A program made the translations under genes and the position numbers. The notes under the pieces were generated by a model, which was not told the DNA's origin, ran no database searches, and saw nothing but the letters and a program-made list of their open reading frames with translations. From an uncultured Staphylococcus sp. (GTDB lineage: Bacteria; Bacteroidota; Bacteroidia; Bacteroidales; Muribaculaceae): 64,000 nt of DNA. The stretch is from the NCBI GenBank assembly GCA_964497255.1, contig CAZCCI010000001.1:69751-133750 (forward strand), written 5' to 3'. Below are positions 13,574 to 54,175 of the stretch, one piece after another. The stretch's first letter is position 1. Every line of letters starts with the position of its first letter.

Positions 13574-15022
13574 ATGTATCAGCAACTCGATTCAGACACC
13601 ATTTGCGCCATTTCGACCCCGGCAGGAGTCGGAGGCATAGCCGTGGTTCGTGTCAGCGGACCAAATGCAATTCAAATTACAGACTCTGTGTGGAAAGGAC
13701 GTCGACTCGCAGATGTCTCTACGCATACCGCACACCTCGGTGACATTATTGATCCCGAGAATCCGACAGAACCGTTAGACACAGGTGTTGCTACCGTTTT
13801 TAAAGGGCCTCGCTCGTTTACCGGTGATGATGTGGTTGAAATTTCAATCCACGGTTCACGTTGGATTCAGCGTGAGCTCGTCAATCTGCTCATTAGACGC
13901 GGATGCCGTATGGCTGAACCCGGAGAGTTTACTCGTAGAGCATTCGCCAACGGCCGACTTGATCTCACTCAGGCCGAGGCTGTTGCCGATGTAATCGCGG
14001 CTTCTTCTCGAAGTGCTCACCGCTTGGCTGCGTCGCAAATGAGGGGCGAATTTTCAAAACATATCTCCGAACTTCGCGACAAACTTATTGAAATCGCATC
14101 ATTACTCGAACTGGAACTTGATTTTTCGGAAGAGGATGTGGAATTTGCATCGCGTCGTCAACTCGAATCGTTGGCGCAAACATTGCTGGCTAAAATTTCG
14201 TCGTTGGCATCGTCGTTTTCAACCGGTAGCGTGCTTAAAGACGGGGTCCCGGTGGCAATTGTCGGCGAGCCGAACGTTGGCAAATCGACCCTGCTTAATG
14301 CTCTCTTACGCGACAACCGTGCTATCGTCAGTGATATTCCCGGAACGACTCGCGACACGATTGAGGACACGATGGAAATCGACGGGATACTCTACCGCTT
14401 TATTGACACAGCCGGTATTCGACAAACGACAGACTCGATTGAAAATCTCGGTATCGAACGTTCGTATGCCGCAATTTCTCGTGCACGAATCGTTGTGTTG
14501 CTTCTTACACCCGATATTTCAGCCGAGAAATTTGAAGAAATCCGCTCAACCGTAGTCTCTCATCTGCCCGAAGATGCAGCTTTGATTACCGTCATTAACA
14601 AAATCGATACGCTTTCTTCTGACTCTTCTATCAATGACGGAAGCGTGGCTACCATTGGGGACATTAGTATTACATCTGACCAAGATTCTCAAAACAATAA
14701 TTCGTCAGCTTCTCCTCTACTGATTTCAGCGTCAAAGGGCCTGAACATCGACCAACTCATAAATCAGTTGAAACGACACTCAGGTGCAGATGACACAGAG
14801 GACGCAGGTATGATCGTCACCAATGCTCGCCACTATGAAGCTCTACTCCACGCACAGGCTTCGCTCATTCGTGTTATCGACGGTATCACTGCCAATATCT
14901 CCGGCGACTTCATAGCTCAAGATCTCCGTGAAACAATCCACCACCTCTCCGTAATCACAGGCTCAATCACCACGACAGATCTACTGTCATCTATATTTGA
15001 AAAATTTTGCATCGGGAAATAG
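13574..15022 (+). CDS. mnmE: tRNA modification GTPase MnmE/TrmE
   Basis: TICAISTP, SFTGDDVVEISIHGS, GEPNVGKSTL, DTAGIR, NKID, terminal FCIGK. Confidence 0.98.
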   Translation: MYQQLDSDTICAISTPAGVGGIAVVRVSGPNAIQITDSVWKGRRLADVSTHTAHLGDIIDPENPTEPLDTGVATVFKGPRSFTGDDVVEISIHGSRWIQRELVNLLIRRGCRMAEPGEFTRRAFANGRLDLTQAEAVADVIAASSRSAHRLAASQMRGEFSKHISELRDKLIEIASLLELELDFSEEDVEFASRRQLESLAQTLLAKISSLASSFSTGSVLKDGVPVAIVGEPNVGKSTLLNALLRDNRAIVSDIPGTTRDTIEDTMEIDGILYRFIDTAGIRQTTDSIENLGIERSYAAISRARIVVLLLTPDISAEKFEEIRSTVVSHLPEDAALITVINKIDTLSSDSSINDGSVATIGDISITSDQDSQNNNSSASPLLISASKGLNIDQLINQLKRHSGADDTEDAGMIVTNARHYEALLHAQASLIRVIDGITANISGDFIAQDLRETIHHLSVITGSITTTDLLSSIFEKFCIGK

Positions 15023-16319: not shown

Positions 16320-17423
16320 ATGGCTACATGTGCTAAGGTATATCTGCGGCAGAAACCTATAACAAAAGGCCGCATGTCACTGTATCTGGATTACTGGCCC
16401 GCAGTCCGTAATCCCCATACAGGGCGTCTGTCTCGCCGGGAGTTTCTCGGCTTCTATATCTACGCCGAACCGAAGAATGACATAGAAAGAGATTATAATG
16501 AAGCAATGCTCACCCAAGGTGAACTCATCCGTTGCCGTCGTCAGGAGCAAGTAATCAACAAGCAGTTCGGATTCATGGACCGACATCAGGAGAAGGCAGA
16601 CTTCCTTGACTACTTCAAAAAGATGTGCAAAGGAAAACCCCAGAAATGGGAAATTGTCTATCGTCACTTCGAGATCTTCGTAAAAGGGAAATGTCTCTTT
16701 GAAGAGGTGACGGTGGAACTATGTACAAAGTTCCGTGAATACCTTCTGACAGCCAATAATCTGCGCCTGACGCATAGAAAACTTTCACAGAACTCTATTG
16801 CCGGTTATTTCTCGACTTTTAGAGGGCTACTGAAAGTAGCTTACAGGGATAAGCTCTTGAAAGAGAACATCAACGACTATCTCGACAAGATAGAATGGAA
16901 AGACGTTCAAAAAGAGTATCTCACTCAGGACGAACTCATAATACTCGCCAAAACGCCTTGTAAGATTGATGTCCTGAAAAGAGCGTCCCTATTCTCTTGC
17001 CTCACGGGGTTGCGTATCAGTGACATAGAGAATCTGACATGGAACAATCTCCGCATTGCTCCCGATAAAGGGCCATGTGTCAGAATCAGGACGCAGAAGA
17101 CCTCCACCGAGGCAATTCTACCGATAAGTTACGAGGCTCTTGAACTCTGTGGGGAACGAGGTGAAGGCAAGGTCTTCAAGGGACTGACACGTTCTATGAT
17201 CAATGTGCCGCTCAAGAACTGGATTGAGGCTTCCGGCATCAAGAAGCATATCACGTTCCACTGCTTCCGTCATACATACGCAACACTTCAGATTGCCGCA
17301 GGAACAGACATATACACGGTCTCAAAGATGCTGACTCACAAATCAGTCGTAACTACCCAGATATACGCGGATCTCGTGTCTTCCAAGAAGCGAGAAACCG
17401 TCGATAAGATAAAACTGAAATAG
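16320..17423 (+). CDS. Tyrosine site-specific integrase
   Basis: TGLRISD, KT, HCFRHTYAT, LTHKSVVTTQIYA catalytic residues; arm-binding and SAM-like N-terminus. Confidence 0.96.
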   Translation: MATCAKVYLRQKPITKGRMSLYLDYWPAVRNPHTGRLSRREFLGFYIYAEPKNDIERDYNEAMLTQGELIRCRRQEQVINKQFGFMDRHQEKADFLDYFKKMCKGKPQKWEIVYRHFEIFVKGKCLFEEVTVELCTKFREYLLTANNLRLTHRKLSQNSIAGYFSTFRGLLKVAYRDKLLKENINDYLDKIEWKDVQKEYLTQDELIILAKTPCKIDVLKRASLFSCLTGLRISDIENLTWNNLRIAPDKGPCVRIRTQKTSTEAILPISYEALELCGERGEGKVFKGLTRSMINVPLKNWIEASGIKKHITFHCFRHTYATLQIAAGTDIYTVSKMLTHKSVVTTQIYADLVSSKKRETVDKIKLK

Positions 17424-19682: not shown

Positions 19683-20075
19683 ATGAAGAAAATCAGCAAC
19701 ACCTTCGAACTCTCCGGCTTCATCGCAAACGACGCCCAGATCCGCAACTTCGACACCGCATCGGTAGCCCGCTTCGCCATCTCGGTAAGCCGCGCCGAAA
19801 AGAACCAGGCCGGTGAGACATCATTCAAGTCTGCCCTCATCAACATCGAGGCATGGCGCAAGAACGAGAACCTCGACTCCTTCGACCGCCTCAAGAAAGG
19901 CGAGCACATCACCGTAACCGGCTACTTCAAGCCCGAGGAATGGACGGGTACCGACGGCAAGAAAAACCAGCGTGTCGTTCTCGTGGCAATGAAGTTCCAC
20001 CGTACTCCCGAAATGGAGGAACAGCCTGAGACTTCCGCCAAGAAATCATCCAAGAAGTCGAAGAAAGCCGCCTGA
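19683..20075 (+). CDS. ssb: Single-stranded DNA-binding protein (basic tail)
   Basis: OB fold LSGFIANDAQ..VARFAISV..INIEAW..KKGEHITVTGYFKPEEW. Confidence 0.85.
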   Translation: MKKISNTFELSGFIANDAQIRNFDTASVARFAISVSRAEKNQAGETSFKSALINIEAWRKNENLDSFDRLKKGEHITVTGYFKPEEWTGTDGKKNQRVVLVAMKFHRTPEMEEQPETSAKKSSKKSKKAA

Positions 20076-20179
20076 TACGGTTCTCCCTCATGAGATTTGC
20101 GGTCTCCGGACCGCTTTTCTTTTGCTCAGTCCGACCCTGTTATATTATTCCCTGACCTTTATAAGCCATTGCATGAATC

Positions 20180-20351
20180 CATCCGTAAGGAGTCGCGTGA
20201 TTTTATGTCGGCAAAGTTAAGGACACCTACGGATACGTCAAGGCCCGACGGCACCGTGCCACGGCATCACCCCTGCTGCTCTGGCAGCCTTGTCTTAATC
20301 CTTTCAGGTATCCTTTCTGAAGCCTGTAAAATTTCACGGCAACCCTCCCGG
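20180..20351 (+). promoter_or_regulatory. Long hairpin family A copy 1, candidate ssDNA promoter
   Basis: CAAAGTTA (20212-20219)-N19-CAA = inverted TTG-N19-TAACTTTG; caaggc/gccttg and gtgatttta/taaaatttcac stems. Confidence 0.7.
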
Positions 20352-20399
20352 AAATGAATTAAAAAAGAGGGGAATAACAACTTAAAAAACAATGTTATA

Positions 20400-20669
20400 A
20401 TGACAACAACCGAAATCACCTATCGTGATGAGACCTACACCTGCCGTGTGCTTTCAAGCAATGACGGAGAGCCGCTGATTATCGCCGGTCTTAAACTGCT
20501 TGACGCACTTATGCCGTATCCGATGACCGACAACTGCAACGGGTTTGCCGACAAAGAGGCGGAGAAAATTGATGAAGAGATTTTCTTTTATACCAATGAA
20601 TGTGATTTGAAACTGGATGATAAAAACCTTACTGAACTGATGAGGGCAAGCAATCCTGACTGGTTTTGA
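20400..20669 (+). CDS. Small acidic hypothetical protein
   Basis: ORF directly behind hairpin A1; IDEEIFFY motif shared with 23847 ORF. Confidence 0.75.
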   Translation: MTTTEITYRDETYTCRVLSSNDGEPLIIAGLKLLDALMPYPMTDNCNGFADKEAEKIDEEIFFYTNECDLKLDDKNLTELMRASNPDWF

Positions 20670-20688
20670 CAACTAAAAGAAAAAAGAT

Positions 20689-20985
20689 ATGACACGCAGA
20701 GAAGAAATAGAATCCGCCGCTAAAGATATATTCAAGGACAGCGAATATCCTGTCCCAAATATATGCTGCTTCATAAGAGGTGCTGAGTGGGCAGACAGAA
20801 ACCCATCTCCTGAATGGCATAAATTCACGGATTCCGACTGCAAACCGGAAAAAGAACAGGTAATAATCCTTGCAATAATCAACATGGAGTTCAAGATTGT
20901 TTCTTATCAATTAGTCCGCTACGACCCGATGATTCATTATTCTGGCAATGATAATGTCCGTTGGCTGGCTGTGCCCGAATTGTAG
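20689..20985 (+). CDS. Phage-like hypothetical protein
   Basis: FIRGAEWADRNP..W pattern typical of small Bacteroidetes phage/ICE proteins. Confidence 0.6.
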   Translation: MTRREEIESAAKDIFKDSEYPVPNICCFIRGAEWADRNPSPEWHKFTDSDCKPEKEQVIILAIINMEFKIVSYQLVRYDPMIHYSGNDNVRWLAVPEL

Positions 20986-21066
20986 TATTAGAATATGGGC
21001 GAATATATGAGAAAAACTTCCATAAATCTTATCTCGAAATAATTAATCAATTAATAACGCATATGT

Positions 21067-22128
21067 ATGTCAAAAATAACTTATACTAAAAAAACTCTGA
21101 TAACTCTTGAGAATGGAACATCAGCAGAAGCTCATGCTCCCATGATAATATCAGCAAGCCGAAGCACTGATATTCCAGCCTTTTATGCTGATTGGTTCTT
21201 TAATAGACTTGAGAAAGGATATTCAGTATGGACTAACCCATTTAATTCATTGAAATCCTATATCAGTTACAAAGATGTTAGATTCATTGTTTTCTGGTCA
21301 AAGAATCCTCGCCCTTTAATCCCTTATCTTGATATACTTGATAAAAGAAATATCGGATATTATATTCAGTTCACCATCAACGATTATGAAAAAGATGGAT
21401 TGGAATCCGGAGTGCCTCCACTCTCACAACGAATTGAGACATTCAAATATTTGGCTGAGAGACTCGGCAAAGGACGTGTAATATGGCGTTTCGACCCGCT
21501 TATCCTTACGGATAACATTGATATGGAATCTCTTTTAGGAAAAATATCCAAAATTGGAGAGCAAATTCATGATTATACAGAAAAACTTGTTTTCAGTTTT
21601 GCTGACATATCAATCTATAAAAAGGTCAAATCAAATATGGAAGCAGAGGGAATAAAATACAAGGAATGGAATAAAGATACTATGATTCTTCTTGCAAAAG
21701 AATTATCATCTCTAAATGGGAAATGGAGGTTAGAACTTTCCACCTGTGGTGAAAGTATAAATCTCACGAATTATGGCATTAATAAAAATCATTGTATAGA
21801 CGACCGATTAATTGTGCGTTTCGGACATCAGCATCCCGAACTTATGGAAGCTCTTGGCGTAAAAATCATTACTACCTCTTTATTTGAAGAAGATGATAGC
21901 CGTTATATAAGACTTGATGACGGGAGGTATGCCATAATAACTCAAGATAATCGGGATAGAGGACAACGTGAAGTGTGCGGGTGCATGAAAAGCAAAGATA
22001 TAGGACAGTACAATACTTGTCCGCATCTTTGCGAATATTGCTATGCCAATGCTTCAAAGGCACAAGCTCTCGCAAACTGGAGAACACATATTAATAATCC
22101 ACATGCAGAAACAATCACTGGGATATAG
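21067..22128 (+). CDS. DUF1848 family protein (Fe-S/SPL-like)
   Basis: IISASRSTDIPAFY, FWSKNP, WRFDP, CGCMKSKDIGQYNTCPHLCEYCYAN; AT-rich. Confidence 0.85.
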   Translation: MSKITYTKKTLITLENGTSAEAHAPMIISASRSTDIPAFYADWFFNRLEKGYSVWTNPFNSLKSYISYKDVRFIVFWSKNPRPLIPYLDILDKRNIGYYIQFTINDYEKDGLESGVPPLSQRIETFKYLAERLGKGRVIWRFDPLILTDNIDMESLLGKISKIGEQIHDYTEKLVFSFADISIYKKVKSNMEAEGIKYKEWNKDTMILLAKELSSLNGKWRLELSTCGESINLTNYGINKNHCIDDRLIVRFGHQHPELMEALGVKIITTSLFEEDDSRYIRLDDGRYAIITQDNRDRGQREVCGCMKSKDIGQYNTCPHLCEYCYANASKAQALANWRTHINNPHAETITGI

Positions 22129-22280
22129 CACAATATAATTCCGATTCTTGTTTCTATTCGACCATATGTACTCTAAACATCACATTAAAAGTTTCTCAAC
22201 ACAATTTTTAATGTGTTGTCTGCTTCATAACCCTGTCTCCTCTTATAAATATATTATACCCCTTTTATTGCTGTCCCCCG

Positions 22281-22425
22281 CCCCGGCATACACGCGGATT
22301 ACTTTGGACGAGAGTCTTTCACGGCAATGCTGTATTGCCAAGAAAGACACTCGTCTGTCAAAGCGGATGGCCGAAGAATATCGCTCAGACTCGCTTGCAG
22401 GAAAGCATAGGTTACGCTACTCTCC
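22281..22425. repeat. Structured repeat family D copy 1
   Basis: ctttg-gacgag-agtctttc-ggcaat/attgcc-gaaagac-ctcgtc-caaag hairpin; paralogue at 30496. Confidence 0.6.
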
Positions 22426-22613
22426 ACTTATGCTTATCCTTACAAGTTCCCTTGACCGACACTCTTCCTGACAGCCATCCTATAATCCGCACTGATATGC
22501 CTTCCCTCCCTTCCTTCCTTACTTTTTTATTCATAGTCAGCCTATTCTATACTGCGCCAGGTTTTCCATTATAATAACAGAGCCTTTTTTAGATCTGGGG
22601 GTATCAAGTGCCA

Positions 22614-22786
22614 TCCGAAAGGGAGCCGTCGATTTTTATGTCGGCGAAGTTAAGGCCGCTCGTGGATATGCCAAGGCCCGGCGGCACGTGCCACGGCATC
22701 ACATGTGGTGCTGTGGCAGCCTTGTCTCAATCCACCGTTTCACGTCCTTTGAGATTTGCCGAAAAAATTGATTCGGCCCCTTACGG
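22614..22786 (+). promoter_or_regulatory. Long hairpin family A copy 2, candidate ssDNA promoter
   Basis: CGAAGTTA (22645-22652)-N19-CAA; arms pair caaggc/gccttg, gtggat/atccac, tcggcgaa/tttgccga. Confidence 0.7.
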
Positions 22787-22862
22787 AAACGGACTTTGAA
22801 GAAAGGGAAAAAATCAATCGCTTCACAGAAAACATAACATTAATCTTTTAGCATCAACGAAA

Positions 22863-23273
22863 ATGGAAGCTAACAACACCAACGCCAACAATGGCAAGAA
22901 GAACATCATCAACTCAACCGTAGTCAGTGGCTTCGTAGCCACCGAGCCGAAAATCACCACCTGCACCGAGGCAAGCGTTATCCGCTTCGCTCTCGCAGTC
23001 AGCAACCGGGTTACCAACAAGGCGACAGGAGAGGTTACACGCCAGTCCTCACTTATCACAGTCGAAAAGTGGGCAAAGAATACCAACCTCTCATCATTCG
23101 ACGCTATCTGAAAGGGCATCCTCGTTGAAGTCAAAGGCTACCTCAAACCTAACGAATGGAAAAACGCCGAGGGCGAAAGCCGACACCGTATTGTTCTCGC
23201 TGCAAGAAGCGTGAAGCACATTGCGAAGCCGGCATCAATGATGGAACCGCAACCTGAAGCAATCGCTTCCTAA
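22863..23273 (+). pseudogene. ssb: Second SSB paralogue with in-frame TGA at 23109-23111
   Basis: Reads ...SFDAI*KGILVEVKGYLKPNEW..., aligning to SFDRLKKGEHITVTGYFKPEEW of 19683. Confidence 0.8.
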
Positions 23274-23333
23274 TCCGAAGTCTCACATTGCCCGAGGCTC
23301 ACTCTCCGAGCCTCGGGTAAACATTAAAGCGAC

Positions 23334-23504
23334 ATGGAAGATTTTGAGGACAGTGTAATCGGATGCTTCTGCACTCTGCTTGACAGTTGGCGAGACCATG
23401 ATTGCGGAGAAATCGTTGAGGACTCCGGGAATCAATATGTAGTGCGACTGACATCAGGACAACAAATTACCTTGAGCCATGATGATGTGGTAATCTGTGA
23501 CTGA
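23334..23504 (+). CDS. 56-aa acidic protein (below ORF-track cutoff)
   Basis: MEDFEDSVIGCFCTLLDSWRDHDCGEIVEDSGNQYVVRLTSGQQITLSHDDVVICD; paralogous to 36487 ORF. Confidence 0.7.
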   Translation: MEDFEDSVIGCFCTLLDSWRDHDCGEIVEDSGNQYVVRLTSGQQITLSHDDVVICD

Positions 23505-23656
23505 CTAAAAACAATAATCGACAATCCGACCTTACTGCGCCGGATTGCCGGTATTTAACGTAGCAAGGTTCCTGTTATACTTTCTTCTTCCCCCTTTTTA
23601 ATGATGTAAGTGCCGCGCTTTTGTAATAAAACGACGGAAGGTCATTTGTAAAATTT

Positions 23657-23826
23657 TCCGATGGCCCGGGAGGGCTGCCGGTGATTCTGCGGCAAAGTTG
23701 GAGGCCGGGGTAAATGTCAAATCGGGGCCGGAGGTCACGGCTTCGCTGTGAATTTGACTCATTGCCCCTTGCGCCTCCCCTGTAATGCCTGAAATCTTAA
23801 GACAGCCCTCCGGCGGACCAAACGGA
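23657..23826 (+). promoter_or_regulatory. Long hairpin family B copy 1, candidate ssDNA promoter
   Basis: CAAAGTTG (23693-23700)-N17-CAAA; gtcaaat/atttgac, gggg/cccc, ggaggc/gcctcc, ggagggctg/cagccctcc. Confidence 0.7.
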
Positions 23827-23846
23827 TCTAACGGGAGGGATAAAAA

Positions 23847-24293
23847 ATGAACTATATGAAAGTAATATGTACTCAATGCGGAGGAATAAACGTAGCGTGT
23901 GAAGCTATGATTAATCCCAATGACAAGAAATTCCGTAATTATACGGATGACGCGTTTCTTTACGGATGGTGTGAGGACTGCGGGAACGGAGTTGTCCTCT
24001 CCAATGTCGATGAAGTGAAAACGGACATAGATAACCTCTATGCTGATTATCGTGCCGAACATGATACAGAACCTCTTTATGCGCAATGTGAAATCGTATG
24101 GAAAAAGGACGATGATTATTATGCTTATCCCAAACCGATGACCATAAAACTATCTTCCGACATTGACGATGCCACCGATGAAAAAATATTCTTCTATTGC
24201 AACGGCATCGAGGCACTTAAATCACTCGTTGAATTTGGTCGTGAGGATTTTATGCTTACTGAGTGCCTCCACTTAACAAGAGAACTGAAATAA
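23847..24293 (+). CDS. Zn-ribbon acidic hypothetical protein
   Basis: CTQC..CEDC; C-terminal TDEKIFFY motif. Confidence 0.75.
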   Translation: MNYMKVICTQCGGINVACEAMINPNDKKFRNYTDDAFLYGWCEDCGNGVVLSNVDEVKTDIDNLYADYRAEHDTEPLYAQCEIVWKKDDDYYAYPKPMTIKLSSDIDDATDEKIFFYCNGIEALKSLVEFGREDFMLTECLHLTRELK

Positions 24294-24313
24294 TATCATT
24301 AAAAATCAAAATC

Positions 24314-24796
24314 ATGCACTCTTCAGTTTATCAAATAACAACCGAAAAGGTTGAAGAAGGTGGATTACTTGATGAAGACACCTTACACCAGGGAGACTGT
24401 TCGGGACTTGACTATTGCTCGAATATTGACAACGAGGAACGCAGGGAGCGTATAGAAATCCTCGTGAACAGGATACTGCCCGAAGGAATGTTCACGCTCA
24501 TTGATGAAAACACAATCCGTTACAACGGCGGCGTGTAAATCTGGCAGGAGGAATGGGTCAAGCTGATAAAAGAAAAATGCTCGCTTGTGACTGCAGACAA
24601 TATACAGAAATGGGAAACGCTTTATTACCTTCAGGAAGCGATAGAAAATCCGCTTGATGCAGGAAGCAGGTTCTACGATGACAACTGCGGATATTCTTCC
24701 TATTCGGAGAAATCGGGAGAGTTCATGAAAAGTCTGAATAACCTTGAGGCAGGAACACTGCTTTATATAGGCGGTGTGGTTGACTATCATTATTAA
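24314..24796 (+). pseudogene. Acidic hypothetical gene split by in-frame TAA at 24536-24538
   Basis: ORFs 24263-24538 and 24587-24796 share a frame; intervening codons IWQEEWVKLIKEKCSL are open. Confidence 0.65.
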
Positions 24797-25104
24797 GCTA
24801 TGAGTCGGATAGTTTATCCGGCATGACGGACAGGCGGGATTTTGCCCTGCCTGCCCCTTCAGTGGATATGGCACAAACATCTGAGACCATATCCTTTTAT
24901 ATCAGAGAGTTCTCCTTTAAGCGCACCCGCTTTCCTCTTATATTTTCTCGTTCTTGCTCTTTTTTATATTCCTGCGCATGACAGGACTAACATTTATGTT
25001 CATAATTACTTGTCCCCCTATAGGTTTTGTCAATATCGTCAAGCCGCTACTCTTATAAATCTCCTTTTATAAAGCCATATCCCATTTTTAGGAGAATCCT
25101 TTTC

Positions 25105-25300
25105 TGTCCGGAACCGTCACTGCCGGTGGTTATCGGCGCGAAGGTCAGCATCCGGGCTTATCAGCCAAGGTTGCACGGAGTTTCTGCGAGATTTTACATC
25201 CATACTGTAAAATCATCTTGAAAACCTTGTCCCTAAAGCCTCTCGGATGCTCCTGTGTTGCGCAGATAATCACCTCATGGACGGCTCCTGAAGGAGCAGG
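25105..25300 (+). promoter_or_regulatory. Long hairpin family C copy 1, candidate ssDNA promoter
   Basis: CGAAGGTC (25139-25146)-N19-CAA; shared core AAAATCATCTTGAAAACCTTGTC. Confidence 0.65.
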
Positions 25301-25327
25301 AAAGTGAGGGAAAGAAAAATCAGATAT

Positions 25328-28300
25328 ATGGCATACAACAAACACAAATCATTTGAGGATAATGTCAAAGCGATAGAAACCGCACTGACCGTCCTCTCGC
25401 AGAAGCGAAAGGCTACCGAGCCGAAGAAAGAAACAATGTCGCTCTATTCGGGCTTCGGAGGTATCAAAGAGGTGCTGAACATCGGCACTGAAAAGCCAAT
25501 CCCTCAAAGCATGGAGGAAACGGCAAACCGACTGTTGACAGTCCTCGGCAGTTTCCCAACCGACAAAACCCATTGGTGCGACACAACCATTGAAAGCATC
25601 AAGACATCGGTACTGACCGCATTTTACACCCCTGCATTTATAATAAACGCAGTGGCACGGCAGATACAGTCCACGTTCAAGACACACGGACTTACGATGC
25701 GCACGTTCCTTGAGCCGAGCGCAGGCATCGGCGGCTTCCTGCCTGTTGCCATGAACAACACCAAGTCATACGCTTTTGAAAAGGACACGCTGACAGGCAT
25801 AATCCTCTCCCTGCTCAACGACGATACCGAAACCTATACGGCAGGTTTTGAGAGCATCGGGGAACAACGGTTTGAGCATACATCTTTTGACGTAATCGCC
25901 TCAAACATACCATTCGGCAATTTCCGTGTGTTCGATGCAGACCTGTGGAAGAAAGGCGGCATACATGAACAGTCCACCAAGACCATACACAACTACTTTT
26001 TCGTAAAGGCAATGGAACTGCTCAACGAGGGCGGACTGCTTGCTTTCGTTACATCGAGGGGCATAGCCGACACTCCCGGCAACAAGTTTGTGCGTGAATA
26101 CCTTGTGAACAACGCCAACCTCATAAGCGCAGTCCGTCTCCCCGACAACATCTTCATGCAGACAGGCGGCATTGAGGTCGGGAGCGACCTGCTCATATTC
26201 CAAAAGGACACAGCCAAATCCGGCCCCACATCAAGGGAGGCGATGTTTCTCCAGACCTCAAAGGAAAAGCACGGCGAGGAAAATACGGAACCATCAAACC
26301 GTCTTTTCACCATGCCGAAAACAACACTGTCAACCGACAGCCGCATTGTGAAAAACCAATACGGCAAGCTGACACGCAGATATTCATGGTCGGGCGGCGA
26401 GGCTTCAATGGCTGACTATCTCGCAGCCATACTGAAATACGATTTTGAACGCAATTACAGGCCAGGGCTTTTCTCCAATCCGGGAATTGGCAGACAGGCG
26501 CAGATGTCGCTTTTCGGAGATTTGGACATCGCGTCGGCAAAAGGACGGCGTGGCTATACCGGGGAAATGCCCGAATGGTTCAAAGAGGGCGCACTGGTAG
26601 TTTTCGAGGGTCAGGTGGGAACGCTTGAATACCGCAAGTCAACCCATTATGAAGATATTGCCGTCGATTTCGTGCCTGTTGACAACGGAAGCGTGAACAT
26701 CGAGAGGGCAAACGACTATATGCCGTTGAGGGGTGTCTATTTTGAACTTTCCAACAAGGAGAGGGAGGAAAAGACCGAGCAACCCGAATTAAGGGAGCGA
26801 CTGAACAGCCTTTATGACGCTTTCACCGCCAAATGGGGCTTCTTCCACGATAACGACAACAAGGAATTTATCTCTCTTGACAGCCTCGGAAACGAGGTGC
26901 TGACACTTGAAATGGCTGTCGGAAGGGAGATTTACAAATCCGACATCATGCGTGAGCCGGTGGCTTTCAAAAAGACGGACACATCGGTGAGGCTTCTCCC
27001 CATGGAAGCACTCGCAAGTTCTCTGAACTATCACGGTCAGGTCAACATCGACTATATGTGCAAGACCGCAGCAATGACCGAGGACGAAATCACCGGAGCA
27101 CTCAAGAACGAGATTTTCTACAACCCAATTACAGACTGTTGGGAGCATAAAGGCCGTTTCATCGGCGGCGACATCGTTACCAAACTGCGAGATGTTTCCG
27201 AACTGCTTCCGTTCCTTGACGAGCGCAAGAGGTCTTTTGCCGAAATTTCTGCAAAGGCACTTTCCGATACGTTGCCCGAACCTGTGCCGTATGAGGAACT
27301 TGACATAAACATGGGCGAAAGGTGGATTGACCCGAAACTATACGCCTCTTTTGCGTCATATCTTTTCGGGGTGGATGCCGAGCTGATGTACTTTGACATA
27401 AACGACACCTACCTGCTCCGGCTCACGGGATATTCAGCCGTCGCCTACAACACTTATTCCGTAAGGAACTGCAATGGCGAGGATATGTTTGTCTATGCGC
27501 TACAGGACACCGTACCCGAATTTACAAAAGAGGTGTATATCAACGGCGAAAAGACCCGTGTAGCCGATGAAGATGCCATACAGGAGGCAGCCGCCAAGAT
27601 ACAGGAGATACGTTCCACGTTCCGTGACTGGCTCGACCGTCAGCCCCTGCCTGTCCGTGACCGGCTTGTAGCCGAATACAACAGCCGCTTCAACTGCTAT
27701 GTGCGCCCGTCCTACGACGGATCGGCTCAGACTTTTCCCGGCCTCACATTGGAACATTTTCCATACGACAGCCTATATCCATCCCAAAAGGATGCCGTGT
27801 GGATGATAAAGCAGAACGACGGAGGCATCTGCTGGCATGAGGTCGGTGCCGGAAAGACAATGATAATGTGCGTGGCGGCTTATGAAATGAAGCGTCTCGG
27901 CATCGTCAACAAGCCTATGATTATCGGGCTCAAGTCCAACGGGCATGAGATAGCAGACACTTTCCGCAAGGCATATCCCATGGCTAAGATACTCTATCCC
28001 GGACGCGAGGATTTCACGCCTGCAAACCGCAAGGAGATTTTCTCGCAGATAAAGAACAACAACTGGGATTGCGTGATACTGACCCACGACCAGTTTTCAA
28101 AGATACCCCAGTCACAGGAAACTATGGCTGCAATCTTCCGGGAGGAACTTGCCGATGTCGAGCGTTGCCTTGAGGTTCTCGAGAACTCCACCATGCGCTA
28201 CCGCAGCTCTAAGATGCAGACAGGGCTTGAGAAACGGCAGGAGAACCTGTCCGCCAAACTCGCCGAATTGCGTCACGACATAGACCAACGCAAAGACAAC

Positions 28301-30316
28301 ACACAGGATTTCAACACTATGGGAATAGACCATATTTTTGTAGATGAATGTCATGCGTTCAAAAATTTAATGCTGCAGACACGCCATACAAGGGTTGCGG
28401 GCATCGGAAACACCAAAGGCTCACAAAGGGCGATGAACCTGCTTATCGCAATCCGTGACATTCAGAGGCGCACAGGCCGTGACCTCGGAGCCACATTCCT
28501 GTCAGGCACGGTTGTTGTCAACGCTCTTACCGAGCTGTATGTGATGTTCAAGTATATGCGTCCGCAGGAACTCAAAAAACAGCGGATAAGCTGCTTCGAT
28601 GCGTGGGCGGCAATATACACCGAGAAAAAGGCGGATTACGAGCTTGATGTCACCGGCAATATCAAGCGCAAAGAGCGTTTCCGTTCATATATAAAGGTGC
28701 CTGAACTTGCCTCATTCCTCCGTGAGATAACGGATTACCGCACAACGGACATGATTAACCTCGATGTTCCCGAAAAGAACGTGCGCTTCCTCTCCAATCC
28801 CCCGACTATCGAGCAGGAAGAAATGGCTGGGAGGCTTGTATCATTCGCCAAATCCGGAGAATGGGCTGACCTCGGACTTGATATGCCCGAACCCGACAAT
28901 CTCGACAAGGCTAAAATGCTTATAGCTACAAATGTAGCGAGGAAAATGGCTCTTGACATGAGACTTCTCGGCGATAAGTTCAGCGACGACCCTGGCAACA
29001 AGGCTTCGATATGCGCAAGGACAGTCTATGACTACTATGTGCGCTCAAACGCCAACCGTGGCACACAGTTCGTTTTCAGCGACCTTTCCACCTATAAACC
29101 CGGCGAGTGGAATATCTATCAGGACATCAAGGACAAACTTGTGGCTCTCGGAATACCCTCGGAAGAAATACAGTTTATCCAGTGCGCCAAGACCGAAAGG
29201 GCGAGGAAGAAACTGTTCGCCGACATGAACAGCGGCAGAGTGCGTGTGCTTTTCGGCTCCACAACCATGTTAGGCACAGGCGTTAACGCCCAGGAACGTG
29301 CCGTGGCGGTGCATCATCTTGAGATACCGTGGCGGCCGGCCGACATGGAGCAGCGTAACGGCAGGGCTGTCCGCAAGGGAAACACCGTGAAACTATGGGG
29401 TGGAAACACCGTTGACATCGTTATTTACGGAACGGAGAAAACTCTTGATGCCTATAAGTTCAATCTTCTGAAGAACAAGCAGATGTTCATAAATCAGATT
29501 AATAACGGCACGATTGCCGTGCGACGCATCGACGAGGACGGCATGGACGAGGAAAACGGCATGAACTTTGCCGAGTTCGTGGCAATCCTTTCCGGCAACA
29601 CCGACCTTTTGAAAAAGGCGAAGCTCGACAACAGGATTATGCAGCTTGAAAAGGAACAGGCCATATTCAAGAAAGAAAAAGGCCGTGCGGAGCGCAAGAT
29701 GTCGGACAATCAGAAAGCCATTGCAACAGCAGAGGATATGATTGCCAAAATGAATATGGACTACCGCTGTTTTGTTTCACGGAAAGATGATGCGTCAGTA
29801 ACCCTCGTATCCGGCACTTTTGCCACACCGCAGGAAATCGGGCGAGAACTTCACCGCATATCAAAGTCTTACCGGGGAACAGAACACAAAGCCGTCGGTT
29901 CTTATATGGGTTTACCCATGACGGTAAGGAGCGAGTTTAATATTGCCGAAATGTTCGAGCGCAACATCTTCTTCATCGAGGGAGCAAGCGGACTCAAGTA
30001 CCGATGCTCCCAATCGGGATCGTTGTCACTCTCATTCGTGGAAGCCGCCGCATATCCCTACGCTGTCATGGAACGTATGCCTGCCCGGATAGCTGAAAAA
30101 GAAAAGGATATAGCGAGACTGCGGGAAGAAATTCCGGTGTTGGAGGAAATCATAGGCCGCAGATGGCCTAAAGCCCCGGAGCTTGAAACTCTCAAGGCTC
30201 AATGCCGGGAGTTGCAGCAGAAGATTGAGGAAGACCTCAAAAATGCCGAAAAAGGCATATCGCTGTCCGATGGTATCTCGCCTGACAAGCCGACAATTAC
30301 CGAGGAAGCAGCCTGA
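25328..30316 (+). CDS. N6-DNA methylase / SNF2-like helicase fusion (DarB-like)
   Basis: LEPSAGIG and SNIPFG MTase motifs; HEVGAGKT, FVDECH, FLSGT, WRPADMEQRNGRAVR helicase motifs. Confidence 0.9.
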   Translation: MAYNKHKSFEDNVKAIETALTVLSQKRKATEPKKETMSLYSGFGGIKEVLNIGTEKPIPQSMEETANRLLTVLGSFPTDKTHWCDTTIESIKTSVLTAFYTPAFIINAVARQIQSTFKTHGLTMRTFLEPSAGIGGFLPVAMNNTKSYAFEKDTLTGIILSLLNDDTETYTAGFESIGEQRFEHTSFDVIASNIPFGNFRVFDADLWKKGGIHEQSTKTIHNYFFVKAMELLNEGGLLAFVTSRGIADTPGNKFVREYLVNNANLISAVRLPDNIFMQTGGIEVGSDLLIFQKDTAKSGPTSREAMFLQTSKEKHGEENTEPSNRLFTMPKTTLSTDSRIVKNQYGKLTRRYSWSGGEASMADYLAAILKYDFERNYRPGLFSNPGIGRQAQMSLFGDLDIASAKGRRGYTGEMPEWFKEGALVVFEGQVGTLEYRKSTHYEDIAVDFVPVDNGSVNIERANDYMPLRGVYFELSNKEREEKTEQPELRERLNSLYDAFTAKWGFFHDNDNKEFISLDSLGNEVLTLEMAVGREIYKSDIMREPVAFKKTDTSVRLLPMEALASSLNYHGQVNIDYMCKTAAMTEDEITGALKNEIFYNPITDCWEHKGRFIGGDIVTKLRDVSELLPFLDERKRSFAEISAKALSDTLPEPVPYEELDINMGERWIDPKLYASFASYLFGVDAELMYFDINDTYLLRLTGYSAVAYNTYSVRNCNGEDMFVYALQDTVPEFTKEVYINGEKTRVADEDAIQEAAAKIQEIRSTFRDWLDRQPLPVRDRLVAEYNSRFNCYVRPSYDGSAQTFPGLTLEHFPYDSLYPSQKDAVWMIKQNDGGICWHEVGAGKTMIMCVAAYEMKRLGIVNKPMIIGLKSNGHEIADTFRKAYPMAKILYPGREDFTPANRKEIFSQIKNNNWDCVILTHDQFSKIPQSQETMAAIFREELADVERCLEVLENSTMRYRSSKMQTGLEKRQENLSAKLAELRHDIDQRKDNTQDFNTMGIDHIFVDECHAFKNLMLQTRHTRVAGIGNTKGSQRAMNLLIAIRDIQRRTGRDLGATFLSGTVVVNALTELYVMFKYMRPQELKKQRISCFDAWAAIYTEKKADYELDVTGNIKRKERFRSYIKVPELASFLREITDYRTTDMINLDVPEKNVRFLSNPPTIEQEEMAGRLVSFAKSGEWADLGLDMPEPDNLDKAKMLIATNVARKMALDMRLLGDKFSDDPGNKASICARTVYDYYVRSNANRGTQFVFSDLSTYKPGEWNIYQDIKDKLVALGIPSEEIQFIQCAKTERARKKLFADMNSGRVRVLFGSTTMLGTGVNAQERAVAVHHLEIPWRPADMEQRNGRAVRKGNTVKLWGGNTVDIVIYGTEKTLDAYKFNLLKNKQMFINQINNGTIAVRRIDEDGMDEENGMNFAEFVAILSGNTDLLKKAKLDNRIMQLEKEQAIFKKEKGRAERKMSDNQKAIATAEDMIAKMNMDYRCFVSRKDDASVTLVSGTFATPQEIGRELHRISKSYRGTEHKAVGSYMGLPMTVRSEFNIAEMFERNIFFIEGASGLKYRCSQSGSLSLSFVEAAAYPYAVMERMPARIAEKEKDIARLREEIPVLEEIIGRRWPKAPELETLKAQCRELQQKIEEDLKNAEKGISLSDGISPDKPTITEEAA

Positions 30317-30495
30317 CATCACCATATATCTGACTTTTATTCCCTGTCCGGTTGTGAAACCAGGCAGGGATTTATTTTGTCATTATGGCATTGAACTGCG
30401 GTGGCGCAACTGCCTCTTTTAACACATAGCCTTTTCAAAAAATGCTTTATCCCCTTTGTTGCCTTCTTGCTCTCTTTTATACCGCTGCGCCCCGA

Positions 30496-30650
30496 CCCGG
30501 CATCCGCGTGGCTGACTTTGAGCGAGAGACGGCCTCGGCAATATTCCATGTTGCCCGGCCCGACACTCGCTTTCACAGCGGTAATCCGAAAAATGCCTGT
30601 CGGCCTCGAAGTCAGTACAGGCATAGGTTCCGTTTCCCTCCACTTACGCC
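30496..30650. repeat. Structured repeat family D copy 2
   Basis: agcgag/ctcgct, ggcc/ggcc, ggcaata/tgttgcc stems; shared tail GCATAGGTT.CG.T.C.CTCCACTTA. Confidence 0.6.
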
Positions 30651-30867
30651 CGTACTTCCATATCTTCGTTGACCGGCAATTTCCCTGATGGCTTACCTCT
30701 CATCCACACATGGATGCCTCCCGCCCTTCTTCCCCTTCTATTAACATGCTCCTTTTATATCGCGGATCAACTCCCTGAGCACCTGTTTCAGATATGCCGG
30801 GACATGCCAGTACACTTATATCCATCTCCGGGAACAGTTATATCCTGTACGGCTTTACAGATACCGT

Positions 30868-31035
30868 CCGTGACGGTTGCCGTGATTTTTGAATCGGCGA
30901 AGTTAAGGCCGCTCGTGGATATGCCAAGGCCCGGCGGCAGCGTGACGGGGCTTCGCCCTGTCAGCCTTGTCGTAATCCACCTGTGCAGCGACCTTCCTGA
31001 CTTGCCGAAAAAATCAGTCCGACAACCCTCCCGGA
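30868..31035 (+). promoter_or_regulatory. Long hairpin family A copy 3, candidate ssDNA promoter
   Basis: CGAAGTTA (30898-30905)-N19-CAA; left arm nearly identical to A2. Confidence 0.7.
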
Positions 31036-31096
31036 AGGAACTGATAAAAGTAAGGAAGAAAAAACAATATTTATCAACATCTTAAAAGTCAAGATT

Positions 31097-32794
31097 ATGG
31101 AGACCAAAGCAGTCAGAAAAGAAAACGTATCACTCGCCCTCATTCAGCCGAGCGCATTCAACCCTCGCAAGACCTTTGACGAGGCAGCCCTCAAGGAACT
31201 CTCCGACAGCATCGCCTCGCAGGGTGTCCTTCAGCAAATCGGCCTACGCCCCATTGCGGACACCGACCGCTACGAGATTATCTTCGGGGAGCGAAGATAC
31301 CGTGCGTCCGTCATGGCAGGGCTTGAGACTATCCCTGCCGACATATACGATGTTACCGATGATGAAGCGGTTGAAATCGCCGTCACCGAGAACCTTCAAC
31401 GTGAGGATGTCTCACCGATTGAGGAAGCAAACGCATACCAGAGCCTCATGGACAGCGGAAGATACGATGTGCAGTCATTGGCTGTGCAGTTCGGCAAGTC
31501 CGAGGCATACATACGCACACGACTGAAATTCACATCACTTATCCCCGAAATAGCGCAACTGCTGGAGGCTGACACTATCACAATGAGCGTGGCTTCCGAG
31601 ATATGCAGATACGGAACTGACATACAGAAAGAGGTTTACGAAAAACACCTCTGCGAAAATTCTTATGGCTACGGCTCATGGCGTGGGCTGAAAGCCTCCG
31701 AGGTCGCAAGGCGCATAGAGCAGAATTTCACAACCGACCTTGAGCGTTACTCATTTGACAAGGGAATGTGTGCCTCATGCCCCCATAACACCAAGAACCT
31801 ACTGCTTTTCTGCGAGGGAACTTGTGGAAAATGCACCAACCGCAAATGCCTTGAGGATATGAACACATCGTATCTCGTTGACAAGGCGGTGGATATGATA
31901 GCCCTATATCCTGCCTACCCTTTGCGACAAGGGCGATTTGGCACAAACGAGGCGGCGGTTGAGCGTCTTTCGGCTATGGGACATGAGATTGAAACTCCGA
32001 ACACATACATTCAGCCGTACCCTGCAATGCCGCAGGAACCGACTGCGGAGGAATACGAAACTGCCGAAGACTTCGCCGAGGCTCATTCGGAGTATGAACA
32101 AGACCTTTCCGAGTATAACGATGCCGTGGAGGATGTCAATGCCAGGGCAGAGAACGGAGAAATCATTGTCTATATTGTCATTGAAAAAAATGACATAAGC
32201 ATAGGATATGCGATGAAGCCGTCCGAGGCTTCCATGGACGGCACTGCTGACAACAAGGCGGACGACCCCATAGTGAAACTCGAGAAACAGGACATGCGCA
32301 ACAAGGAAATCGCCGTGGAGAAAACCGTGGCAGACACCAAGAAGCAAATCCTTGAGGCCGACATGACCGAGACCAAGTTCGGGCAGGACGAGGAAAGAAT
32401 GGTGTATTATTTCATGCTTTCATCGCTCCGAAAGGAACATTTCTCGGCTGTGGGGCTTACCGAGAAGCAGGCAGGCTGTCTTTCCGATGATGAAAAAATG
32501 GAGATAGTCAGCAATCTCAACGCCAGGACAAAGGCTGTAATCCGCAGGGATTATCTTATAGCCAATTTCAAGGAGGCATTCGGGAACAACACAGTTGCAA
32601 AACTGCTGCTCGGCTTCGCAAAGAAACACATGCCCGAACAGCTTGCCGAGATTGAGAAAGGCTATAACGAGGTCTATGAGAAACGGCATCAGCGCATAGA
32701 GGAAAGAAAAGCGGCTCTCATGCCGAAAAACGAAGAGCCGACTACGGAGGCAAACGAAACCTCCGAAGATGAAGCCAACGAGGAAGCGGCTTAA
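31097..32794 (+). CDS. parB: ParB/RepB/Spo0J family protein
   Basis: FNPRKTFDE, GVLQQIGLR, IIFGERRYRAS, ENLQREDVSPIEEA, HTH. Confidence 0.88.
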   Translation: METKAVRKENVSLALIQPSAFNPRKTFDEAALKELSDSIASQGVLQQIGLRPIADTDRYEIIFGERRYRASVMAGLETIPADIYDVTDDEAVEIAVTENLQREDVSPIEEANAYQSLMDSGRYDVQSLAVQFGKSEAYIRTRLKFTSLIPEIAQLLEADTITMSVASEICRYGTDIQKEVYEKHLCENSYGYGSWRGLKASEVARRIEQNFTTDLERYSFDKGMCASCPHNTKNLLLFCEGTCGKCTNRKCLEDMNTSYLVDKAVDMIALYPAYPLRQGRFGTNEAAVERLSAMGHEIETPNTYIQPYPAMPQEPTAEEYETAEDFAEAHSEYEQDLSEYNDAVEDVNARAENGEIIVYIVIEKNDISIGYAMKPSEASMDGTADNKADDPIVKLEKQDMRNKEIAVEKTVADTKKQILEADMTETKFGQDEERMVYYFMLSSLRKEHFSAVGLTEKQAGCLSDDEKMEIVSNLNARTKAVIRRDYLIANFKEAFGNNTVAKLLLGFAKKHMPEQLAEIEKGYNEVYEKRHQRIEERKAALMPKNEEPTTEANETSEDEANEEAA

Positions 32795-33034
32795 TATCCA
32801 TAATCATAAGACGATTGCAGGGGCTGTCATACGGCCTCTGCTTTCTTTATTCTGACTACACCGGTATATCCATTTATGACGGTGCCTCCATTCCGGGCCG
32901 CTCAAGCCTCTTATACTGTTTATGCCATTTCAATTACTCTTTTAATCAACGGGGGCACTGTTGATGAATCTGATTTAACGTCTGTCAGCCTTTTATAAAT
33001 TGCGGTTATTCCACTTTTAATCCTGCGCCTGTGA

Positions 33035-33190
33035 TCCGGGAGATGCCGTCCGTCGATTGTCACGGCAAAGTTGGAGGCCGGGCCAAATGTCAAATCATAG
33101 TCGGAGATCACGGCTGTCACCGTGAATTTGCCTTATTGACCCTTTTCGCCTCCCCTGAAAATGCCTGAAATCGGTCAGACAGCCCTCCGA
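33035..33190 (+). promoter_or_regulatory. Long hairpin family B copy 2, candidate ssDNA promoter
   Basis: CAAAGTTG (33066-33073)-N17-CAAA; homologous to B1. Confidence 0.7.
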
Positions 33191-33232
33191 CAGACCAAAA
33201 GGTCTGAAAAAGAGGGATAAAAATGTAAATTT

Positions 33233-35194: not shown

Positions 35195-35413
35195 TTCTTT
35201 CTCCGGAACCTGTCCGGTCGGGTTTATAGGCGCGAAGTTTGGCATTGGGGAGCATAGCCAAGGTCGTGCCGAAGTTTCCGCGCCATTTTGCCGGTATCCG
35301 GAAAAATCGTCTTGAAAACCTTGTCACTTGCTCCTTTGAAAGATGCCCTTGTGATGCGCAGATAAACCCCTCGCGGACGGCTCCGAAAGGAGCAATAAAC
35401 GGGAGGGGAAGAA
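35195..35413 (+). promoter_or_regulatory. Long hairpin family C copy 2, candidate ssDNA promoter
   Basis: CGAAGTTT (35233-35240)-N18-CAA; gggtttat/ataaaccc, ggcat/atgcc, caaggt/accttg. Confidence 0.7.
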
Positions 35414-36800: not shown

Positions 36801-36852
36801 AACTATATAACGGCAAAATATTTGGATTTTTGCCGTTGTATAGTTAACTTTG
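36801..36852 (+). promoter_or_regulatory. Operator-like inverted repeat and -7 element of AbiE operon
   Basis: aactatataacggcaaaa-N9-ttttgccgttgtatagtt abutting TAACTTTG (36845-36852). Confidence 0.75.
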
Positions 36853-41977: not shown

Positions 41978-42472
41978 ATGCAAATGTTCCTTCATTTTTA
42001 TCCGGCAATAGTCACCATGCTGTCGATGTTCTTCTATCGCCGTGATACGCCGGGGATGCAGAAGTTCTATCGCCGGATGACGTTCAGCCTGTCGGCACGC
42101 AAACTTTTCGTATCGCTCCTTATGCTGCTGATGCTCTCCTTCAACTTCTGCTATCTGCAGAGTTACGGAGTGAACTGGGCCCTTGGAGTGGGTACGGTCC
42201 TATGCCTGTCGATGTTCTCTTTCCGCATAACTGAACGCAGCATCTTCTGGCTGCAGACCCGCCTCGGCATTGGACTTGGATTCATAGCCATGCTGACCTG
42301 CGTCATCGAACCGGCGATATGGCCTCTTTCAATGAATCTATACATATTCTCTATCGGTTCGGTCTTCTATCCGTCGGAAGAACTGATGCGGCAACTGAAG
42401 TCGCCGGAGAATTTTTCCCGATATACCGCTTGTGCGGACAGCACTCTTATATCAGGATACTATTCGCGTTGA
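41978..42472 (+). CDS. Hypothetical multi-pass membrane protein
   Basis: Several hydrophobic segments. Confidence 0.7.
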   Translation: MQMFLHFYPAIVTMLSMFFYRRDTPGMQKFYRRMTFSLSARKLFVSLLMLLMLSFNFCYLQSYGVNWALGVGTVLCLSMFSFRITERSIFWLQTRLGIGLGFIAMLTCVIEPAIWPLSMNLYIFSIGSVFYPSEELMRQLKSPENFSRYTACADSTLISGYYSR

Positions 42473-42605
42473 CTCCGGGAGGGTTGTCGTTCTGCAAAGT
42501 TAATCGCCGCATCCGGTTACTCTCCAAAACGGGCCGCCGGTCTCGCTGAGATTTTGGTTCGTAAGATACGGCAACTTGTATGGCAGAAAACAACCCGTTT
42601 CCCGA
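42473..42605 (+). promoter_or_regulatory. Long hairpin F1, candidate ssDNA promoter nearest oriT
   Basis: CAAAGTTA (42495-42502)-N22-CAAA; gggttgt/acaaccc, ttctgc/gcagaa, gccg/cggc, ccaaaa/ttttgg. Confidence 0.65.
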
Positions 42606-42656
42606 AGCCAATGAGAATGGTTCTCGAAGGTGAGGGAAACAATAAATCCCAGCACT

Positions 42657-44034: not shown

Positions 44035-44169
44035 AACGTGCCTTGCTTGCTTCCGGTAATAGCGGGTACACGACGGTTGCAGGAGGCCATTCCGAGCCTC
44101 TCTGATGTGCGCTGTGCGCCTATCCGGGTATATGCCTGACCGATTCCCGTGGTCATCGTCCAGGTTGGC

Positions 44170-54173: not shown

Positions 54174-54175
54174 AG

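Follow-up and report, generated by a model that had tools for sequence, protein, structure and literature searches.

A stretch of 64,000 nt from a Muribaculaceae genome (GenBank assembly GCA_964497255.1, contig CAZCCI010000001.1, positions 69,751 to 133,750), referred to here as the window, contains part of an integrated mobile element. In the ~25 kb block between its integrase gene and its MobV relaxase gene, where almost all genes lie on the plus strand, three long hairpins (A1, A2 and A3) belong to one family. With a probability that we put at roughly 70 %, these hairpins are promoters working on the transferred single strand, comparable to the Frpo promoters of plasmid F and fitted to a sigma factor of Bacteroidota, and form part of a larger group, with at least nine members, of hairpin elements acting as single-stranded DNA (ssDNA) promoters of this Muribaculaceae integrative element. 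The sequence data directly show the anatomy of the hairpins, their pattern of conservation, their covariation and their linkage to genes.

Promoters of this kind were described in enterobacterial plasmids. In plasmid F, ssb, psiB and further leading genes are expressed from the single strand under Frpo1 and Frpo2, which are shut off when the second strand is synthesised (PMC9849209). Plasmid pESBL carries six ssDNA promoters of three classes, validated by rapid amplification of cDNA ends (5' RACE) (PMC12672017). Across MOB types, including MOBV, leading regions are enriched in anti-defence genes for which the transferred strand serves as template (PMC11541004).

Anatomy of the hairpins and their promoter boxes

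Hairpins A1, A2 and A3 were paralogues aligning over ~220 nt (repeat finder families D2, D9 and D10). Each consisted of a ~180-nt imperfect hairpin placed directly upstream of a plus-strand gene (coordinates, scores and folding values are given in Table 1). An earlier note on this DNA, made from the letters alone, had listed three copies with an exactly shared arm sequence in A2 and A3, loops and right arms that differ while still pairing, and a small acidic open reading frame (ORF), an SSB pseudogene and ParB behind them. This description was confirmed throughout. All three copies lay at the positions listed in that note, and the sequence shared by A2 (22641-22686) and A3 (30894-30939) was the 46-mer TCGGCGAAGTTAAGGCCGCTCGTGGATATGCCAAGGCCCGGCGGCA. 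Identity between A2 and A3 in the window was 0.67 for the right arms versus 0.84 for the left arms. The listed pairings were found: CAAGGC/GCCTTG and GATTTT/AAAATY occurred in all three copies and GTGGAT/ATCCAC in A2 and A3, with CGGAT/ATCC in its place in A1. The three downstream genes were also those named. The acidic protein behind A1 belonged to no Pfam family. The SSB gene behind A2 was interrupted by a single AGA>TGA change at codon 83, its remaining frame being intact; its counterparts in relatives encode 133-142 amino acids (aa).

Sigma-A promoters of Bacteroidetes reportedly consist of a -33 TTTG box and a -7 TAnnTTTG box spaced by ~19 nt. The reverse complement of the left arm of the A hairpins read cTTG-N19-TAACTT(T/C)G and thus matched these boxes (TTG-N19-TAnnTTTG). 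The 19-nt spacer and the intact TA at -7 that the earlier note had attributed to all copies were indeed present in all three, on the reverse complement of the left arm. The -7 box was perfect in A1 and carried one mismatch (C at position 7) in A2 and A3. On the right arm of A2, the equivalent boxes (22721-22724 and 22751-22758) were 26 nt apart, versus 19 on the left arm. In 46 of 51 distinct family-A sequences, position 2 (A) of the -7 box corresponded to a T.G wobble on the plus strand and hence to an A.C mismatch on the minus one; the next-but-one base after this A was bulged. When eight hairpins were folded as minus strands, the -7 box was part of an internal loop or adjoined one in most of them; pairing of the box was more complete in A1 and A3.

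The orientation of such boxes was biased. Only four promoter-like sites in 19000-44300 pointed rightward, one of them being the perfect promoter of the AbiE cassette at 36845, versus 21 pointing leftward, though the genes are almost all rightward. The composite motif CRAAGKT-N17-24-CAAR occurred nine times on the plus strand of the leading block and once on the minus strand (at 36852, where the AbiE promoter is read in reverse complement); in the relative G457:C2, the counts for the stretch from integrase to MobV were nine and zero. The block GCGAAGTT was found once in the gap that may hold the origin of transfer (oriT), at 44180-44200, without a -33 TTG at suitable distance.

A covariance model of family A matched six more hairpins of the window (B1, B2, C1, C2, C3 and E) over their full length, with 23-47 bits, and each of these was also seen independently as a repeat or as a folding peak. 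All nine hairpins lay upstream of plus-strand genes, and their minus-strand folding z-scores ranged from -2.5 to -5.5.

Conservation, covariation and gene linkage

Relatives of family A were sampled in three ways, with a pattern for the left arm, with blastn over genomes of the family and with a pattern for the right arm alone over metagenomes. The left-arm pattern gave 24 copies in 21 loci of species-representative genomes, all of them metagenome-assembled genomes of Muribaculaceae, including Duncaniella and Ca. Homeothermus. Full-length copies were detected by blastn in nine other genomes out of 401 from the family, all nine already present in the pattern set. The metagenome scan was cleanly bimodal: 32 true members were obtained, the rest being chance matches with at least nine mismatches. 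Over 23 positions of the left arm, 26 of these 32 right-arm-anchored members were perfect, five displayed one change and one had a 1-nt deletion; one of the single-change members thereby gains a perfect TAATTTTG. Beyond Muribaculaceae, 400 genomes of the order yielded one 25-nt chance match by blastn and none by covariance model, and distant-mode blastn of A2 against 72,556 PLSDB plasmids gave no match. The window's own genome held no family-A copies other than A1-A3. No match to Rfam 15 at gathering score was found in the window, and at E <= 1 over 19000-44400 the sole match was a chance miRNA match at 22307-22355.

The covariance model was built from 25 copies, and 59 copies were aligned, 51 of which were distinct. 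A plain MAFFT alignment with RNAalifold recovered only the apical part of the hairpin and was replaced by a consensus from base-pair probabilities together with the covariance model. Among the 51 distinct family-A sequences, standard pairs filled 84.1 % of the cells, versus 34-45 % with slid partners. Changes on both sides were observed in 31 of 77 pairs (21.4 +/- 2.1 in shuffles) and the covariation score was 0.153 (0.092 in shuffles); neither value was reached in any of 500 shuffles. When families B and C were added, giving 76 distinct hairpins, 65 of the 77 pairs displayed changes on both sides, in 651 cells versus 202 +/- 12 in shuffles. G.T and A.C occupied 70 and 82 cells, respectively.

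The earlier note had proposed that selection acts on the structure and on the left-arm sequence, not on coding, and had named covariation across homologues as the check. Selection on the structure was borne out by the double changes that restore pairing. Orthologues differed by indels of 1, 2 and 10 nt, so the ORFs that overlap the hairpins are non-coding. As to the sequence of the left arm, the proposal held for the two boxes, with an asymmetry at -7, and failed elsewhere: outside the boxes conservation amounted to 0.68-0.70 on the left and 0.69-0.71 on the right, which ruled out a left arm more conserved than the right over its whole length.

The boxes themselves stood out among the 76 hairpins. 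Nearly every helix covaried except the two promoter boxes. The left-arm motif GGCRAAGTT, whose reverse complement AACTTYGCC holds the -7 box, was 99-100 % conserved, R being only G or A, versus 52-92 % for its right-arm partners, which were often mismatched. On either arm the -33 CAA/TTG was 100 % conserved, and it was paired in every case. Factors of the sigma-70 family recognise the upstream box in duplex form and the downstream one as single-stranded non-template DNA. Pairing of the -33 box on both arms, combined with a -7 box constrained on the left arm only, fits a promoter that would function while the minus strand is folded. With the plus strand folded, the arm presented would lack the conserved -7 box and transcription would run leftward into ORF-free DNA, so only the minus-strand fold would serve the plus-strand genes. 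Of 25 hairpins, 20 folded more stably as minus strand (Wilcoxon p 0.02); when family A was taken by itself, p was 0.08.

Linkage to the downstream gene was consistent. A same-strand ORF started 155-222 nt after the box in all 25 complete family-A copies from genomes, and each subtype kept its gene: the A1 type was paired with the 89-aa protein, the A2 type with SSB and the A3 type with ParB, while an acidic protein of 81 aa accompanied a fourth subtype. The A1-type hairpin before the gene of the 89-aa protein was also present in relatives L011, L020, L022 and L025.

Comparable hairpins were encountered in two Bacteroidales plasmids with CTn-type traM and traN, which were reached through ParB homologues. 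In Bacteroides uniformis pBuniCL06T06-1 (NZ_CP072237.1; locus L061, 9390-9640), a near-perfect ~175-nt hairpin (z -9.45) unrelated in sequence to family A lay upstream of DUF2958 and N-6 methylase genes. It displayed a perfect TTTG-N21-TAGCTTTG on the corresponding arm, 195 nt before the DUF2958 gene, with the TTTG in a bulge; the other arm had no bulge. In the Parabacteroides distasonis plasmid NZ_OY725768.1, ATTG-N20-TACCTTTG was found in a hairpin before ssb, again on the corresponding arm and in a structure unrelated in sequence to family A. The ParB gene on NZ_CP072237.1 had an ordinary promoter, TTTG-N20-TATATTTG, at 6649.

The mobile element and the proposed mode of action

The left part of the window was chromosomal, with purL, etfBA and genes for an acyl-CoA dehydrogenase, glycine cleavage and mnmE. 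The leading block of the element included genes for SSB, small proteins, DUF1848, a truncated SSB, a 1670-aa methylase-helicase, ParB, YpsA and a DUF6577/AbiEii pair. These genes were co-oriented with the MobV relaxase gene and lay upstream of it. With SSB, ParB, the methylase-helicase and the AbiE cassette between integrase and MobV, the block was laid out as reported for leading regions and for pESBL with its six ssDNA promoters (PMC11541004, PMC12672017, PMC9849209). To the right of the relaxase gene, minus-strand genes encoded two ArdC-like proteins, M23 and glucosaminidase hydrolases and a Toprim protein. The position and orientation of the relaxase gene and the internal logic of the hairpins suggest that the minus strand is the transferred strand, the portion from 44 kb to 15 kb entering first.

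Table 1. Hairpins, promoter boxes and genes of the element in the window
Feature	Positions	Strand	Remarks
Hairpin A1	20169-20387	- (predicted functional strand)	covariance model 154 bits; minus-strand fold -34.3 kcal/mol, z -3.5; plus-strand z -1.45
Hairpin A2	22602-22823	-	covariance model 219 bits; minus-strand z -3.1; plus-strand z -5.5
Hairpin A3	30855-31073	-	covariance model 201 bits; minus-strand z -4.9; plus-strand z -5.1
A1 boxes	20212-20219 (-7); 20239-20242 (-33)	reverse complement	-7 TAACTTTG; -33 cTTG; spacer 19
A2 boxes	22645-22652 (-7); 22672-22675 (-33)	reverse complement	-7 TAACTTCG; -33 cTTG; spacer 19
A3 boxes	30898-30905 (-7); 30925-30928 (-33)	reverse complement	-7 TAACTTCG; -33 cTTG; spacer 19
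Hairpin B1	23653-23856	-	37 bits; TTTG-N17-cAACTTTG on left-arm reverse complement, -7 box in internal loop
Hairpin C1	25095-25326	-	34 bits; z -5.5; upstream of 1670-aa methylase-helicase gene
Hairpin B2	33023-33232	-	38.5 bits
Hairpin C2	35191-35423	-	47 bits
Hairpin C3	38982-39207	-	40.7 bits; boxes cTTG-N19-gAACTTTG
Hairpin E	42450-42652	-	22.8 bits; z -4.4; nearest to relaxase; perfect TTTG and TAACTTTG, 22-nt spacer
Gene behind A1	20400-20669	+	89-aa acidic protein, isoelectric point 4.1
Gene behind A2	22863-23273	+	SSB gene with premature in-frame TGA; ORF end 23111
Gene behind A3	31097-32794	+	ParB-like, 565 aa, ParB_N and HTH_ParB domains
mnmE	13574-15022		element begins after this gene
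Helix-turn-helix (HTH) protein			first gene of the element, before integrase
Tyrosine integrase	16320-17423	+	left end of element; Arm-DNA-bind_5, SAM_5 and Phage_integrase domains
Excisionase-like HTH protein			after integrase
Intact (second) SSB gene	19683-20075		
Candidate oriT	44035-44306		gap upstream of relaxase gene
MobV-family relaxase	44307-45797	+	Pfam Mob_Pre; NF041497, 166 bits (cut-off 100)
Toprim protein	62123-63574	-	

We infer that the hairpins fold in vivo, that polymerase recognises them, that transfer has the stated polarity and that promoter activity is switched off afterwards. During conjugation, the minus strand would enter the recipient first from an oriT beside the MobV relaxase gene, and each inverted repeat of ~180-220 nt would fold back on it. 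The 3' arm of the fold, corresponding to the reverse complement of the left arm, would then show a Bacteroidetes promoter as non-template strand, with the complement of the right arm as template. The -33 TTG would lie in a perfectly paired helix and, 19 nt downstream, the -7 TAACTTYG in a partly melted internal loop. Host RNA polymerase would start in the basal stem and proceed, with the transferred strand as template, into the plus-strand gene, be it ssb, parB or a gene for a small acidic protein or the methylase-helicase. Once the complementary strand is made, the hairpin would be lost; the right arm of the plus strand being poor in boxes, with 26-nt spacing, the genes would fall silent. The same short RNAs could also prime synthesis of the complementary strand.

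A broader proposal, to which we would give slightly less than even odds, is that mobile elements of Bacteroidota independently evolved ssDNA promoters in which hairpin geometry separates the two steps of recognition by sigma-70-family factors. The -33 box would be offered as perfect duplex and the -7 box partly pre-melted on one arm. Each hairpin would thereby be a natural promoter of the bubble or fork-junction type, for which no melting step is required.

Further conserved features accompanied the hairpins. A small stem followed every one of them (CCCTY...RAGGG or, for family C, CGGCTCC-GAAA-GGAGC). It ended ~10-40 nt ahead of the start codon and would be located in the 5' leader of the predicted transcript; examples were found at 20337-20375, 23805-23840, 33180-33215 and 35375-35410. 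Family D was a structured non-coding element of ~230 nt present at 22270-22500 and 30485-30705, directly upstream of A2 and A3 only. Its two copies were 81 % identical, with compensatory changes in the central stem (GTCTTTC/GAAAGAC versus GACGGCC/GGCCCGAC), and the minus-strand fold at 22306 had a z-score of -4.97. It occupied the same positions in relatives G457:C2 (86-96 %) and G714:C9 (95 %), and might function as a signal for priming or as an RNA transcribed leftward. The motif CYYTTATAW occurred 18 times in the window (17743-49029; e.g. 20156, 22240, 25050, 30752, 32990, 36767, 38965 and 42444) versus 2.9 expected, 17 times on the plus strand and always inside the element; the relative G457:C2 displayed a similar strand bias (18 versus 1). 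It was often located 30-90 nt upstream of a hairpin, and may mark module boundaries or act as a single-strand signal. The family D hairpin and this strand-specific motif may belong to the same single-strand entry programme, for example in priming or insulation.

The AbiEi/AbiEii-like cassette was flanked by twin palindromes. It was the sole unit of the leading block with an ordinary perfect rightward promoter (TTTG-N20-TAACTTTG, box at 36845-36852) and not a hairpin promoter. Ordinary terminators also existed apart from the hairpins, for example at 20098-20125. From 50083 to 64000 and over the next 40 kb, the genes recognised were those for the ArdC-like, M23, glucosaminidase and Toprim proteins only, and further to the right genes of SrfB-like, Virul_Fac and CHAT types.

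Alternatives, known systems and significance

Several observations weigh against ssDNA promoters. The -7 box departs from the consensus in A2 and A3 by the C at position 7, and the same box is a plausible leftward promoter in double-stranded DNA. The difference in stability between strands was small, and A2 folded better on the plus strand. The near parity of G.T and A.C cells argues against an RNA structure but leaves the folding DNA strand unnamed. The superfamily alignment was fitted to the family-A model, which favours matches that keep the family-A boxes. Finally, neither VirB4 nor a coupling protein was recognised by Pfam or NCBIfam in the window or in the next 40 kb to the right, nor any CTnDOT-type Tra protein in 50083-64000 and the next 40 kb; the element may be mobilisable rather than self-transmissible.

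Four other explanations were considered. In the first, the hairpins are ssi/sso initiation signals that recruit RNA polymerase, or the Toprim primase of the element, solely to prime the complementary strand. Frpo was originally described as promoter and primer source alike (Masai & Arai 1997, cited in PMC9849209 and PMC12672017), and ICEBs1 has an sso (PMC4595007); a Toprim protein is encoded by the element itself, and nine signals are aligned along one strand. Pure priming requires neither the fixed distance to a same-strand start codon nor the fidelity between hairpin subtype and gene, and no ordinary promoter was found for the hairpin-linked genes. Priming as the only function thus appears unlikely, although priming and gene expression are not mutually exclusive.

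Unlikely as well, in our estimation, is that the left-arm boxes are ordinary duplex promoters firing leftward, giving antisense or non-coding RNA (e.g. across family D), with the inverted repeat as a regulatory element or terminator. It is true that the box is near consensus and points left in duplex DNA, and that A2 and A3, in relatives too, have the conserved structured element D 140-370 nt to their left. No D element was present at A1, B, C and E, however, and there were no minus-strand ORFs to the left. A 180-nt covarying hairpin, a -7 partner that tolerates mismatches and the fixed distance to a plus-strand ATG would all be left unexplained.

The plus-strand mRNAs might instead have long 5' leaders in which the hairpins act as RNA structures controlling stability or translation, with promoters further upstream; this was judged very unlikely. 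The invariant boxes read as a promoter solely on the other strand, no consensus plus-strand promoter was seen upstream, and the minus strand was slightly more stable. G.U was not in excess over A.C, and Rfam gave no match even at E <= 1 apart from the chance match mentioned above. Such leaders would nevertheless accommodate the folding of the plus strand, the small CCCTY...RAGGG stem just before start codons and the recurrent CYYTTATAW upstream.

It is extremely improbable that the hairpins are gene-cassette recombination sites folded as single strands in the manner of attC, or a miniature inverted-repeat mobile element: the array of co-oriented hairpin-gene units, the boundary motif CYYTTATAW (17 on the plus strand versus 1 on the minus strand) and the varying cassette content of relatives are outweighed by an integrase of the Bacteroidetes Arm-DNA-bind_5/SAM_5 type with no IntI-like gene seen, by hairpins that stay with the downstream and not the upstream gene, by the lack of copies elsewhere in the genome and, for attC, by an R''/R' core that departed from consensus on direct reading. 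Occurrence at one genomic site only, linkage to the downstream gene and the separate ordinary terminators such as 20098-20125 led us to reject the mobile repeat, attC and terminator readings.

If the hairpins are ssDNA promoters, they resemble Frpo1 and Frpo2 of F and ssi1-3 of ColIb-P9 in several respects. All are long imperfect hairpins on the transferred strand of a leading region, both strand and region being predicted here (PMC9849209; Masai & Arai 1997). In the stem, host promoter boxes are rebuilt on the arm corresponding to the non-template strand of the gene that follows. Immediately behind the hairpins stand ssb and further early genes, oriented (in the window by prediction) for transcription from the transferred strand; the promoters are predicted to be inactive once double-stranded. 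They differ in having no sequence similarity, in their boxes (Bacteroidetes -33 TTG and -7 TAnnTTTG versus -35 TTGACA and -10 TATAAT), in the phylum of the host and in belonging to an integrated element with a MobV relaxase; promoter activity here is predicted only.

As with classes 1-3 of pESBL (PMC12672017), several non-homologous hairpin classes coexisted in one leading region (a putative one here) with one hairpin per operon (six there, at least nine here), and were found by homology-independent hairpin mining combined with a search for promoter boxes. A difference is that the classes of the window all fitted one covariance model with the same invariant boxes. The pESBL promoters were validated in E. 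coli by 5' RACE and early RNA-seq, while those of the window are predictions. The ssoA-type origins of rolling-circle plasmids and the sso of ICEBs1 (PMC4595007) also involve folded ssDNA, host RNA polymerase and a short RNA from a hairpin promoter, but they serve priming only and occur once per replicon, unlike the nine copies tied to genes here. Ordinary sigma-A promoters of Bacteroidetes share the two boxes and the ~19-nt spacing, the AbiE promoter being a normal example in the window. In the hairpins, by contrast, the boxes and the gene that would be served are on opposite strands, and the other arm of the structure has no -7 box and a spacing of 26 nt.

Expression of genes from the incoming single strand in the new host (zygotic expression) was demonstrated only for enterobacterial IncF and IncI plasmids, and full-text literature searches found no relevant report of ssDNA promoters or Frpo in Bacteroidota. 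If the proposal is true, the hairpins would be the Bacteroidota counterpart of the single-strand promoters of E. coli plasmids. Bacteroidales dominate the gut and exchange elements intensively, and expression of anti-defence and establishment genes before the second strand is made has not yet been described there. The conservation data provide a rule at the sequence level, with -33 constrained on both arms and -7 on one. A reverse-facing TTG-N19-TAnnTTTG in a hairpin ~200 nt before a gene could thus serve to annotate leading regions, the polarity of transfer and candidate anti-defence genes in Bacteroidota.

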